Source: Pseudomonadota bacterium (lineage in GTDB: Bacteria; Pseudomonadota; Alphaproteobacteria; SP197). Taken from it: a DNA stretch of 64,000 bases. The position numbers were made by a program. Shown piece after piece: positions 54,001 through 60,000 of the stretch; positions within the stretch are counted from its first letter, which is position 1, and each line of letters starts with the position of its first letter. Location of the stretch: NCBI GenBank assembly GCA_039028155.1, contig JBCCIS010000007.1, positions 67,624-131,623 on the forward strand, written 5' to 3'.

Positions 54001-57000
54001 GATTGAACGTGGCGCTCTCAAATGGCGTGTCGGCCAGGACCTCGTTGGCGACCCACACGGCAATCGGTATGCGTGTCGCGTAAACCACGGCGAGCAGGAC
54101 CAGTACGAGACCAAACCCCACCGCCGCTATCAACGCGAGGCGCCGGCGCGGCCGCTTGGGCTGCGGCGGTTCAGTCATGGGAAACTGCAAGGGCGGGCTG
54201 GGACCGAGGCGCCGTCATGGCACCATCATAGCACCGGGTCGACAAAGACACATGGCCGGCGTCACCGTGCCATCACACGGATGACGGCGGTTCGCCGGTC
54301 ACAATGTCGCGACCGGCAACCAAGGATGGTGTCGGGTGCCTAGCTTGCTGCCGCCACCGCGCGTTGCGCCATGACGGTGACCAGGTGCGCGCGATAGTCG
54401 GCGCCGGCGTGGATATCGCTGTTCATGTCATCGTCCGGGACATGGATGCTGGCAAGCACCTGATCGCTGAAACTCGCTGCCAACGCCTGCTCCATCTCCG
54501 CGACACGGAAGACGCATGGGCCTGCGCCGGTCACGGCGACACGGATTCCATCCACCGTTTCGGCGACCATCACACCGACAATCGCGTAACGCGATGCCGG
54601 GTTGGGAAACTTGGCATAGCTGGCTCGGCGCGGCTTGGGGAAGCTGACGGCGGTGATGAGTTCGCCGTCGTCGAGCGCGGTCTCGAACATGCCGGCGAAG
54701 AATTCATCGGCCGCGATGTCGCGTTTGTTCGTGTGAACCGTCGCCGCCAAACCAAGGACCGCCGCCGGATAATCGGCGGCCGGGTCGTTATTGGCGAGCG
54801 ATCCGCCGATGGTACCGCGGTTGCGCACCTGGAAGTCGCCGATGCCGCCCGCAAGTTCGGCCAAGGCCGGGATCGCAGCGCGCACGTCAGCCGACGTCGC
54901 AACATCGTTATGGGATGTGCCGGCGCCGACCCTGACGCCTTGACCGTCAACCGTGATTCCCTTGAGATCGCCAAGGCCGCCAAGATCAATCAGATCGGAC
55001 GGACCGGCAAGACGCAGCTTCATGCTGGGCAGAAGGGTGTGGCCACCGGCGATGTAGCGGGCATCGTCGGCCCCTTCGAAGAGGCTGGTGGCTTCGTCTA
55101 GAGAAGATGGTTTGTGATAGGCAAAGCTGTACATCGTCCGATCGCCCTCAGCCGCTTGCCATGGATTGGGCGGCGGCCTTAATCGACTTCACGATGTTGT
55201 GGTAGCCGGTACAGCGGCAAAGATTGCCCTCCAGATGATGGCGGATCTCCTGCTCGCTCGGGTCGGGGTTGTTCTTGATGAGATCGATCGCACTCATGAT
55301 CATGCCAGGCGTGCAGAAGCCGCACTGAAGACCGTGATTGTCGCGAAACGCCTCTTGCATCGGGTGGAGCGTGTCGCCGTCGGCGATGCCCTCGATGGTC
55401 GTGATGTCGTGGCCGTCGGCCTGGACGGCGAGCAGCGTGCAGGATTTGACCGAGGCGCCATCAAGGTGGATGACACAGGCGCCGCACTGGCTGGTGTCAC
55501 AGCCGACATGAGTGCCGGTCAGCCGCAGGTGTTCGCGCAGAAACTGGACGAGCAGGGTACGTTCCTCGACCTCGCCCGTGACCTCTTTTCCGTTCACTGT
55601 CATCGATACGGCGATGGCCATCCGTTTTCTCTCCGTTAATCCGGTCCGCACGGCGCCGCAGCAGCGCCTGGCCGGCAGTTTCGAAGCCTGCCACCGACAG
55701 GTCAAGGAGATGCTGCATTTTGGAGAGGTCGTGGACCGCGCAGACCCCGCGACGTATGCTCTGCGCGGATCGGTCGAACACGTGAGGATAAGGATTTATG
55801 GCAGGACACGGTCATAACGAACCGGAATCAGACATCGCGATCAGGGTCAAGGCGATGGAAAGTCTGTTGGCCGAGAAGGGGCTGGTGGACCCGGTCGGCA
55901 TCGACCATCTGGTCGACTATTACGAAACCCGCGTCGGCCCGCGCAACGGTGCCGCCGTGGTCGCGCGCGCCTGGACCGATCCGGACTACAAAGCGCGCCT
56001 GCTGGACGATGCCAGCGCAGCCATCGCCGAGCTGGGTTTTTCCGGGCTGCAGGGCGAGAACATGGTGGTGGTGGAGAACACACCGAAGGTCCACAACATC
56101 GTCGTCTGCACGCTGTGCTCGTGTTATCCGTGGCCGGTGCTCGGCCTGCCGCCGGTCTGGTACAAGAGTCCACCTTACCGCTCGCGCGTCGTGCGTGAGC
56201 CGCGCGCGGTCCTGGGCGAGTTCGGCCTTGCCGTGCCGAAGGATGTCGAGGTGCGCGTCTGGGATTCCAGTGCCGAGATCCGTTATCTGGTCCTGCCCAT
56301 GCAGCCCGAGGGTACCGCTGGCAAGAGCGAGGAAGAGCTGGCCACGCTGGTGACGCGCGACGGCATGATCGGCGTCGCGGCGGTCTAGGGGGACATCATG
56401 GACGGCATACATGACATGGGCGGCATGCATGGCTTTGGCCGTGTTGAACGCGAAGAAGACGAACCGGTGTTCCATCACGAGTGGGAGAAACGCGCGTTCG
56501 GTATCTCACTCCAGGTAGCCGACAGCGTCGGCTTCGTCGATGATCACCTGCGCCGCAGCATCGAGCGTGTTCCCGCCGATACGTACCTGCGGGTGACGTA
56601 TTACGAGCTTTGGATGCGTTCGATAGAGGCGATCCTTGAAGAGAAAGGCGTACTGACAATCGCCGAAATCGATCAGCGTGTCGAGGAGCTGAAGCGGGGT
56701 GAAGGCAATGGGTGAGGTAACCTTCGAAGAGATTGTTGCGGCGGTCGAAGGTGGTGCCACGACGCGCAGGCCCGATGTCAAGATCGAGCCGCGTTTCAAG
56801 GTCGGCGACGTCGTACGCGTGAAGAAGGGGCACCCGTCCCATCACACGCGGTCGACACGCTACTCGCGCGGCAAGACGGGCGAGGTGGTGAAAGCCCACG
56901 GTGTCTTTGTCTATCCGGATACAAACTCCGAATGGCAGGGCGAAGACCCACAGCATGTCTATACGGTCTGTTTTTCAGCCAGAGAGATTTGGGGCGAGGA

Positions 57001-60000
57001 TGGCGTCGATGGCGATTCCCTTTGCCTTGATCTTTGGGAACCCTACTTGGAGCAACCATGACAACGGGTGCACCTGAAGACATTGTTCGCGCGGTACCCT
57101 CGTCCGAAGGCGAACCGGTCTTTCAAGAGCCGTGGCAGGCGCGGATATTCGCCGTCGTATCACGCCTCGCCATGGACGGCCGATTTCCGTGGGATGACTT
57201 CAAGGAGAACCTTATCGCCGAGATCGGCAGCGGCGGGCCGGACGACACGACGGACTACTACATCCACTTCGCCAAGGCGTGCGAGAACCTGTTGACGACC
57301 AACGGCATGCTGGATGCCGCGGACCTCGAGGCCCTCACGGCCGAGCTGAAAGCCCATCCGCCGCACCCCAATTCGTCGCCGCCCGGCCCCATCACTGTCG
57401 ATAAGGCTAGCTCGACCTAGGATGGTGCGTTGGCTGCGCCGCGTGTCGCTCGATCCAGTCTCAGGCCGACCCAATAGATCATCGCGACCAGGATGATCGA
57501 GATATAGGCATCAATGGCGTAATGCCAGCCGAGGTAGACCGAGCTGAAACTGATGACGGCGACAAAGAGCCACGCCAGCGCGCCCCACCACTTACCGAAG
57601 AGTTCGCGAACAAAGAACGCGTTCAGCGTCACGATCGCGACATGCAGACTGGGCACGGCGGATATCCCGCTTCCCGGACCGACCGCCCTGGCCTCATAGT
57701 TTTGCCAGAGGTAGGTGCTGAGGTACTTGACGAGTGAATCGCCAGCGTTCAGTTGGTCAATGAACGCGTTGAGGTCGGCAAAGCGCTGGGCGTCACCGGT
57801 TGCGCCGGCATAGAACACCGGTCCGGCGCTCATCGTCAGGGCTGCTATAACATTGCCGAGCAGGCCCCAAGTCAGCATCATGCTAATGATGTAGCGCGTG
57901 CGAACTTGGTCGGCACGGCGACAAACACAGACCCAGAATGCGAAGCCGGTCCAATAAACCAACCAGGTCTGATGGTAGTTGCGATCGAGCCACCGCCCGA
58001 ACACATCGGGATCGAGAAGCCAGTGAGTCACGATCCAGGGGTCGCCCCCATGAAGGAACGCGTCGATCTGTGCCAAAGACTCTTCATAGGGAAAGCCCGC
58101 GCTGAACGGTAGGACGGTCTTGACCGTCGAATAGGACGCCATCATCGGGATGAACAGCGCGATCAGTACGAGACCGACACTCAGCCTTGCCCAGTAATCG
58201 GACGAGGCTAACGACGGCGCTGGTCTGTCCGATTGCGTGAAGCAACGGAATACATCGCCCGCGAGCGTGCCGATCAGGAACAACGGTATGAAGACGATCA
58301 GTGAGTAGTTCGTGAACAGCGTGACATAGCGCGGCACAAGCGCGTCGATGTTGAAGCTGCCGGCGAGCGACAGATAGATGAAGGCGGCGGCCACATAGAG
58401 CAGAACCGCCCCATAGGTCGCCGCATCGTTCATGACATAGCGCGCGATGTGGCGAAGCAGATTGGCGACACCGGTTTGAAGCGGAAGCCGACGCGCGCCC
58501 GCCGACGGATCGTTTGCCGTGGCCGCGGCGACGGTGCGTGTCGAATCAGGAGCCAAGGTTCCTTCGGCGGCAGGTACGAGGGTCATTCAGACGATCCGAA
58601 CTGGCCGAGATGTGCATCAGATGCCCAGCGCCCGACAATTCGCGCGTCGCTTGCCGGTCCTCGCTGGGACAACGTGACTCAAGCTAAGAGATACTGGTAA
58701 CGCACACAGATGATCACGGTCACACTTGCCGCAGACACCGATCCTGTTGGTCAACAGCCAAAGGTGGGGCCAAAGGCCCGGAATCGCTTGGTTTTTTGCG
58801 TCGACGTTCATGTTTGTGCGGTGTTGATATCGCCCCGCTTTACTCCAAGAGCCAAATCGCGATAAGCGCGACCGCCGCACCCAGCATGGCAGCGACAAGC
58901 CACCTGACTGTTGTCGGCGATGACGATCGATCGTCGACATGGCTCAGGACGTCGGGAACGGCGGCTGGTTCCGGTGTTTCTGTTTCGTCAGGTTCTTCCG
59001 TCGCTGGCGCTTCGTCGGTTGCCAGGAGGTCATCGAACGCACCGAAAAACTCGTCGGCAAGCTTCTTGCCGGTGCCTTCGACGAGCCGTGCGCCGACCTG
59101 GGCGATCTTGCCACCAACTTGACCGGTGGCCTGGTAGCGCAACAGAGTCCCACCGCCATCGGCATCGCTCAAGGTCACGTCGGCACTGCCTTTGGCGAAG
59201 CCGGCGACGCCGCCTTTGCCTTCTCCGGCGATGGTGTAGCCTTCGGGCGGGTTCAGGTTGGACAGCGTGACCGCGCCTTTGAATGTCGCCTGCACCGGTC
59301 CGATCTTGGATTTGATGGTCGCCGTCATCTCGGTCGGAGACTGCTTTTCGATTTCCTGGCAGCCGGGGATCGCCTGTTTCAGGATTTCCGGATCGTTGAG
59401 CGCGTCCCACACGCGTTCGCGCGTCGCGTTGATCGTGTACTCCCCTGCGAACTCCATCCTCTCTCCTTTGAAGGTTCGGGTTGCCTATGTCTAAAGGCCT
59501 TGTATCAGATCGAACAACAAGATCAGGCCAAAGGCGATGACGACCGCCAGCACGGTGACCGTCATGTTGAGGTCGCGGGCAAGCACGCCGCTGACGCCGT
59601 GGACGCGCTCAAGCGCCGCAACGAGGTCCTGAAACCAGCGCATCGCGGTCTGACGCATGGCGCGGTCAGCTGCGCCAACGGTGCGGCCGACGACCTTGGC
59701 CAACCACGGCCCGACCAGGCGGTAGAGCGTGTCGGTGTCGAGCGATATCGTCAGCGTGCGCTTCATCAGCGGCAACAGCACGAAGAAGGCGAGACCGGCG
59801 AACAACAGCAACTGCGTCATGTGAAGGACATGCCCAACCGTATAGGGCACATAGTCCACGGGGTAGGGCAGCAGCGCATAGAGTGGTTCGGGATAGACGC
59901 CGATCGCGATGCACAGAAAGGCGAAGATGATCATCGCCCAGCGCATGGAGGCCGGCGGGTCCGAAGGCCTGAGGCCCGAATCCTTCTGGAAAAAGACAAA

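Follow-up and report, generated by a model that had tools for sequence, protein, structure and literature searches.

The four closely packed genes at positions 55798-57420 of the stretch of DNA analysed here very probably form a functional operon for a cobalt-type nitrile hydratase, with a beta subunit that is naturally fissioned at its inter-domain linker. The stretch, called the window below, comprises 64,000 nucleotides (nt) of contig JBCCIS010000007.1 (assembly GCA_039028155.1, positions 67,624 to 131,623 of the forward strand) from a Pseudomonadota bacterium of the alphaproteobacterial lineage SP197. As predicted from its genes, the enzyme is a three-polypeptide cobalt nitrile hydratase. 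The open reading frames (ORFs) all lie on the plus strand, and encode, in this order, the alpha subunit (55798-56388; 196 amino acids (aa), 21.3 kDa), the N-terminal half of beta (N-half, 56398-56715; 105 aa, 12.2 kDa), the C-terminal half of beta (C-half, 56708-57061; 117 aa, 13.2 kDa), and an accessory, or activator, protein (57058-57420; 120 aa, 12.9 kDa). The alpha and N-half genes are separated by a 9-nt gap. The genes for the two halves, which encode separate proteins, share the 8-nt overlap ATGGGTGA (56708-56715), such that the C-half start codon falls within the final codons of the N-half; the C-half and accessory genes overlap by the 4 nt ATGA. An earlier reading of this DNA, made from the sequence alone, had described a canonical alpha subunit with a VCTLCSC motif, a beta subunit encoded by two ORFs in different frames with the N-half ending at 56715, a C-half starting either at an ATG at 56708, eight nucleotides before the N-half stop (AATGGGTGA), or possibly at a GTG at 56699, and an accessory gene coupled through ATGA. 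This layout was confirmed throughout: the frame of the C-half is shifted by +1 from that of the N-half, both candidate start codons are present, and the accessory gene begins with ATG 57058 inside the ATGA and ends at 57420.

The class of the enzyme can be read from its alpha subunit, which matches the family PF02979 (NHase_alpha) with 298.7 bits and the NCBIfam equivalog model TIGR01323 with 310.1 bits, well above the membership cut-off of 249.85. The VCTLCSC motif occupies alpha residues 103-109 (56104-56124, plus strand), as claimed, and a tyrosine follows directly. The threonine in the motif together with the following tyrosine is a marker of the cobalt type. VCTLCSC has been used as a cobalt marker in published work, too (PMC12646544). 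Among the solved structures in the PDB, alpha chains of the cobalt type score 256-313 bits with the window protein, those of the iron type 173-204 bits, and the gamma chains of thiocyanate hydrolase 159-165 bits. The latter enzyme is another three-subunit member of the superfamily. In the thiocyanate hydrolase of Thiobacillus thioparus, two chains likewise take the place of beta, with the natural break at the same boundary between domains, and the alpha chain of this enzyme (2dd4_A) aligns with the C-half of the window (E 3.3e-7). It is nevertheless extremely improbable that the operon encodes a thiocyanate hydrolase instead of a nitrile hydratase. Against the model for the thiocyanate hydrolase gamma subunit (TIGR03887), the window alpha subunit reaches only 200.9 bits, under the cut-off of 291.45 and far from the score with the nitrile hydratase model, and the solved gamma chains rank below all cobalt-type nitrile hydratases. 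Thiocyanate hydrolase chains were absent from the matches of the N-half at E <= 0.001. Thiocyanate hydrolase is thus far more distant from the window proteins in sequence, and acts on another substrate.

By sequence and operon layout, the window enzyme belongs with the classical two-subunit cobalt-type nitrile hydratases whose genes are in the order alpha, beta, accessory. Among the known systems, these are its closest relatives in sequence, for example the enzyme of Pseudomonas putida 5B (3QXE), with 298.7 bits for alpha, which places it among the best solved relatives of this subunit, and E values of 5.5e-22 for the N-half and 7.6e-27 for the C-half. The P. putida operon resembles that of the window in gene order, type of accessory protein and catalytic residues, but its beta subunit is one chain of 219 aa, in place of the 105 and 117 aa in the window. 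The two halves account for a beta subunit of full size. Their summed length of 222 aa compares with 219-233 aa in solved one-piece beta subunits, so that no length has been lost. The N-half matches PF21006 (NHase_beta_N) with 109.6 bits and spans positions 1-98 of the 226 positions of TIGR03888, and the C-half matches PF02211 (NHase_beta_C) with 108.3 bits and spans positions 116-225. Since the N-half aligns with residues 1-91/96 of solved cobalt-type beta chains (E 5.5e-22), and the C-half with residues 119-224 of the P. thermophila beta chain (E 1e-29), the break falls into the linker between the two domains.

The residues expected of an active enzyme are also distributed over the two halves. 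In cobalt-type beta subunits, Arg52, Tyr68, Trp72 and Arg157 (P. thermophila numbering) are conserved and contact the active site. The N-half carries R52, E56, Y68, Y69 and W72, of which E56 is conserved at 94% and the other four are invariant in an alignment of 27 split homologues, and Arg48 of the C-half aligns with beta-Arg157. About 70 homologues of the N-half have the N-domain only (100-106 aa, identity from 92% down to 42%), and the C-half homologues found have PF02211 only, with lengths of 116-120 aa in all but two. One of them, MEM7120803.1, is 100% identical to the C-half; in the NCBI annotation of a Pseudomonadota metagenome-assembled genome, it has a gene of its own, beside the alpha subunit MEM7120801.1. 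An exact look-up of the N-half protein gave no record.

The fourth protein of the operon matches the model for nitrile hydratase accessory proteins, TIGR03889, with 62.6 bits (cut-off 46), and PF21006 with 46 bits. It is 30% identical to the N-half of beta (E 4e-9), and known activators resemble beta. The ATGA overlap between C-half and accessory gene is kept in all close relatives. The start codon at 57058 is part of this conserved ATGA, with an anti-Shine-Dalgarno pairing energy of -5.6 kcal/mol; a TTG at 57034 was also considered as a start and rejected, as it lacks Shine-Dalgarno pairing (+0.6 kcal/mol). In some split-beta loci (L037, 2235-2960; L062, 4663-5400; L064 and L076, 4675-5373), the fourth ORF is longer, and combines an accessory-like first part with a second beta C-domain, so that the long "activator" resembles a full beta-like paralogue.

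For the C-half, two starts had to be compared. The upstream GTG at 56699 was discarded because it is missing in the relative L084, whereas the position of 56708 is conserved: every close relative has a start codon at the equivalent site, ATG in most and GTG in L084. The C-half therefore starts at ATG 56708. In the 20 nt upstream of the C-half, anti-Shine-Dalgarno pairing amounts to -8.3 kcal/mol, compared with a window mean of -3.05 kcal/mol, and values in the relatives range from -5.0 to -10.3 kcal/mol. The overlap takes the form (A/G)TGG(G/C)TGA in the window, L083-L087, L091/L092 and L006. An 8-nt overlap of other sequence (ATGCTTAA) is present in the Burkholderia locus L089.

The arrangement of the two frames raises the question of whether the halves could be joined during translation. 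A programmed +1 ribosomal frameshift at GGG-UGA, alongside or instead of the synthesis of two halves, would yield a fused beta of normal length (220 aa). The C-half is indeed in the +1 frame, the GGG before the stop might allow re-pairing of GGG-U as GGU, and there is a Shine-Dalgarno-like sequence upstream of the junction. However, the slip codon is not conserved, with GGC TGA in L086/L087 and GCT TAA in Burkholderia L089, while the start codon in the overlap is. Moreover, most other split loci have junctions that frameshifting cannot bridge, either a TGATG that places the C-half in a different frame, or an in-frame stop, or a gap of ~47 nt. In view of the variable slip codon and of these junctions in other lineages, frameshifting appears very unlikely.

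A split gene may also be an artefact. In the window, the GGG run at 56710-56712 could contain a 1-nt indel that artificially divides an ordinary beta gene, and the sequence-only reading had already pointed out that an error of this kind should be exposed by a single-base correction that restores a continuous beta ORF of ~220 aa in the reads or in related strains. By this criterion, the outcome is mixed. Removal of one G from the run does give a continuous beta of 220 aa, and the more distant sister clade L003-L005 (58-68% identical) has a one-piece beta. All closer relatives (74-92% identical), however, have the split. Seven further assemblies, from six distinct relatives and made by differing projects and assemblers, keep it (L083 from Logan, L084 from NCBI, L085 from JGI, L086/L087 from ENA, and L091/L092 from a 5.5-Mb ENA/NCBI genome). 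The relatives share with the window an N-half of 105 aa, a C-half of 117 aa, the 8-nt overlap with its start codon at exactly the same place, the ATGA-coupled accessory gene and the gene neighbourhood. The junction of L086/L087 reads GGC TGA, and is thus free of homopolymers, and across the junction, the window sequence recurs with 100% identity in the independently built Logan contig L090. A sequencing or assembly error is therefore so improbable that it can practically be neglected.

If the split is real, it could still be the result of a frameshift mutation, with beta a decaying pseudogene and the enzyme inactive, as the sequence-only reading had considered. Genes that are split across frames are a common sign of pseudogenes, and partnerless relics of beta N-halves occur in Streptomyces. 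The pattern of divergence argues against decay. Pairwise ratios of nonsynonymous to synonymous substitution rates (dN/dS) are 0.07-0.26 for the N-half and 0.07-0.24 for the C-half, close to the 0.05-0.15 for alpha, in pairs with a synonymous divergence (dS) of about 0.5 to more than 2, which is saturation. Judged from these values, both halves are under purifying selection, broadly like that on alpha, although the upper pairwise values are higher. The lengths of the halves have stayed constant while sequences diverged (N-half identity of 74-92% in the four relatives compared, C-half identity of 82% in L091/L092), catalytic residues are intact, and both the accessory gene and the signals for translational coupling have been retained. 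Together with the split loci of distant organisms described below, these observations make a pseudogene highly improbable, and the sequence evidence instead supports the other option of the sequence-only reading, a functional nitrile hydratase of three subunits.

The split is not confined to the close relatives of the window. When genomes were scanned, one for each species, at least 592 loci matched; in the best 80 of them, stop-to-stop ORFs were compared with the four window proteins. Among the 74 complete loci in these best 80, about 23 (~30%) have a split beta, and all of them are alpha-first; a one-piece beta is present in 25 alpha-first and 26 beta-first loci. Relatives of the query are over-represented in this sample, so that the share of split loci is not a global frequency. 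An accessory gene accompanies nearly all of the split loci examined. A search of cluster representatives with an N-half profile returned 1,963 clusters at E <= 1e-10, many of them represented by contig-end fragments, and for this reason the clusters do not give a clean ratio of split to fused genes.

Carriers of the split belong to the Alpha-, Beta- and Gammaproteobacteria and to the Cyanobacteria. They include the cultured strains Halomicronema sp. CCY15110, Aquicoccus sp. SU-CL01552 and Paracraurococcus lichenis LOR1-02, and, with the operon on a plasmid, Gloeocapsopsis dulcis AAB1, Burkholderia sp. SFA1 and Burkholderia sp. PAMC 26561. Distant carriers have the same layout of alpha, N-half, C-half and accessory gene, but the type of junction between the halves differs. 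The commonest is a 1-nt overlap, TGATG or TAATG, after a GGAGG-like sequence. Others are ATGA and the 8-nt overlap (window clade, L006 and Burkholderia L089). In L001, an in-frame stop is followed by a restart, where gene callers put a 66-nt gap. An intergenic gap of 47 nt is annotated in L088, and estimates for the gap in L040 range from 5 to ~100 nt. In Burkholderia sp. SFA1, cobW and an amidase gene lie downstream of the operon, and on the plasmid of Burkholderia sp. PAMC 26561 (L094), the accessory gene is followed by the cobalt transporter genes cbtB-cbtA. Both neighbourhoods fit a working cobalt enzyme. In the L094 locus, an inserted IS3 transposase gene also separates nthA from the genes for the beta halves. 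In RefSeq, the halves are named "SH3-like domain-containing protein" or "hypothetical protein", and because of these generic names, split operons seem to lack a beta subunit and are undercounted.

In a neighbour-joining tree of concatenated alpha, N-half and C-half sequences, split and one-piece forms are interleaved within the alpha-first group, and Fitch parsimony requires at least eight changes between split and fused states across the 81 taxa. The window clade, with split beta, is sister to the one-piece clade L003-L005 (100% bootstrap), and the next branch out is L006 (85%), which is split with the same ATGGGTGA junction. The linker in L003-L005 is a few residues longer and rich in glycine. 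The simplest reading of these sequences is that the split is locally ancestral, and that L003-L005 have re-fused their beta gene. Because the tree was built from distances, and from a biased sample, the number and direction of changes are indicative only. Three loci, L014, L015 and L046, have two tandem sets of beta-like genes beside one alpha gene; in L046, one of the beta copies is in one piece and the other is split.

Nitrile hydratases of three polypeptides are already known, and the window operon does not overturn the current understanding of the enzymes. Streptomyces enzymes with beta halves of 10-11 kDa have been found active in experiments (PMC8574189, PMC7329996), and reviews up to 2026 cite only two such three-subunit enzymes, both from Streptomyces, as exceptions (PMC12648386, PMC13243292). 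The first is the toyocamycin nitrile hydratase (TNH) ToyJKL, an (alpha-beta-gamma)2 hexamer with subunits of 21.2, 10 and 11.4 kDa (PMC8574189), which forms sangivamycin from toyocamycin, and whose genes belong to the deazapurine cluster toyA-M (PMC12648386). The second, AnhDEA from S. canus CGMCC 13662, is of the cobalt type. AnhD (10.4 kDa) corresponds to the N-part and AnhE (11.35 kDa) to the C-part of beta, and both are required for activity (PMC7329996). The gene order is anhD-anhE-anhA, there is no activator gene, and AnhD has been reported to act as a swapping chaperone (PMC7329996). What the sequences compared here add is that a split beta is frequent, under selection and evolutionarily labile in alpha-first operons of Proteobacteria and Cyanobacteria, where it occurs alongside the accessory gene.

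The sequence-only reading had compared the operon with ToyJKL, and was correct with regard to the three-subunit architecture of that enzyme (PMC8574189). In architecture, ToyJKL from S. rimosus is like the window enzyme, with cobalt, an alpha subunit of ~21 kDa and two chains of ~10-13 kDa in place of beta; the gene order is also alpha-first, as judged by the gene names. The match with TNH that the reading had proposed thus holds for architecture and subunit sizes. It does not extend further, as the window operon is part of an alpha-first proteobacterial and cyanobacterial lineage, lies outside any deazapurine cluster, and has kept a dedicated accessory gene. The similarity could be taken to suggest that the operon encodes a ToyJKL orthologue, which hydrates a deazapurine nucleoside nitrile such as toyocamycin or a preQ0-like compound, and the subunit sizes do agree with those of TNH (PMC8574189). 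We assign very little probability to this possibility. A Pfam scan of the ~57 ORFs of the window did not find QueC, QueD, QueE or GTP cyclohydrolase I, and queuosine-related genes are represented only by an ordinary tgt at a distance of 27 kb. The conserved neighbours of the operon are cox-type, PAP2, CoxG and Mrp genes, in contrast to the setting of toyJKL within toyA-M (PMC12648386), and ordinary alpha-first operons of Proteobacteria with an accessory gene often have the split. With the accessory gene kept, deazapurine genes absent and the split common in the lineage, the suggestion of a nucleoside-like nitrile as the substrate finds no support.

From AnhDEA, the window operon differs in having the alpha gene first and a separate accessory gene (TIGR03889), whereas AnhDEA is beta-first and has none. 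Gene order and taxonomy suggest, but do not prove, that the fission in the window lineage was independent of that in the Streptomyces enzymes; all beta-first loci in the sample have a one-piece beta. Further searches in Streptomyces led to other arrangements. A plasmid match has a one-piece beta in a beta-alpha-accessory operon, and a search that started from the Streptomyces beta N-part retrieved only orphan N-half ORFs of 90-102 aa, with no alpha or C-half nearby. They are probably remnants of genes, or else cases in which the domain is used on its own. The orphan N-domain ORFs in the Streptomyces loci L095-L098 have a position that is conserved across three assemblies.

Several points weigh against a functional operon with a naturally divided beta subunit. 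Neither half reaches the cut-off of 152.2 bits of TIGR03888, the model for a one-polypeptide beta (105.1 bits for the N-half and 116.6 bits for the C-half), although this is to be expected of halves. No gene for an amidase or an aldoxime dehydratase adjoins the operon, and the nearest amidase gene is 38 kb off. Finally, a simple scan for promoters and terminators found no sigma-70-like promoter and no convincing terminator, and nothing above expectation. The scan also detected no promoter inside the operon, where the sole terminator-like stem (57011-57026) is weak.

If the operon is functional as predicted, a single mRNA would carry all four genes, and ribosomes would begin the C-half at its own ATG, which lies within the last part of the N-half gene. 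The halves would fold as the two domains of an ordinary beta subunit, and would assemble non-covalently with alpha to an (alpha-betaN-betaC)2 complex like ToyJKL and AnhDEA. Cobalt would be delivered to alpha by the accessory protein, itself a paralogue of the N-half, through the customary swapping of subunits, and the mature enzyme would hydrate a nitrile to the amide.

It is also conceivable that the split is not neutral. In alpha-first operons, a free N-half of beta, being a paralogue of the accessory protein, may take part in cobalt loading or subunit swapping, as AnhD reportedly does. This idea appears rather unlikely at present. If true, the recurrent fission and re-fusion of beta (at least eight changes across 81 loci, with a re-fused clade as sister to that of the window) would reflect selection on enzyme maturation, and the split-beta enzymes, common among Proteobacteria and Cyanobacteria, would represent a functional class of their own. 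For the mining of enzymes, split-beta nitrile hydratases are candidate biocatalysts. For the study of maturation, they are a natural experiment that could show if assembly or the insertion of cobalt depends on a covalent connection between the beta domains.

Some other genes in the window may be mentioned. Directly upstream of the operon, on the minus strand (54340-55705), genes for a small (2Fe-2S; 55148-55705) and a medium (FAD; 54340-55134) subunit of the CO-dehydrogenase type are 13 nt apart, with no gene for a large molybdopterin subunit between them. The same is true of L091/L092, and L084-L086 do have a large subunit of 792 aa. By tblastn, CoxL was not found in the window, and coxD, coxE, coxG, xdhC and mobA-like genes are present (47093-50236 and 58840-59457). 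The sole amidase of the window is an amidase-signature gene on the minus strand (16313-17737), which adjoins the gene for a transketolase/E1-like protein of 792 aa (together 16313-20213). The tRNA-guanine transglycosylase (TGT family) gene is part of a run on the minus strand (27667-30319), together with genes for an FmrO-type rRNA methyltransferase and a TP_methylase-family protein. A fusion protein of 790 aa with APH-type phosphotransferase and class-III aminotransferase domains is encoded on the minus strand at 6545-8917, and two tandem paralogous genes for M17 (leucyl) aminopeptidases of 458 aa each lie on the plus strand at 20902-23661. Two proteins of the ADP-forming acyl-CoA synthetase type are encoded on the plus strand (31306-33405 and 42796-45492), the longer of which (898 aa) has a C-terminal GNAT domain, as in Pat-type protein acetyltransferases.

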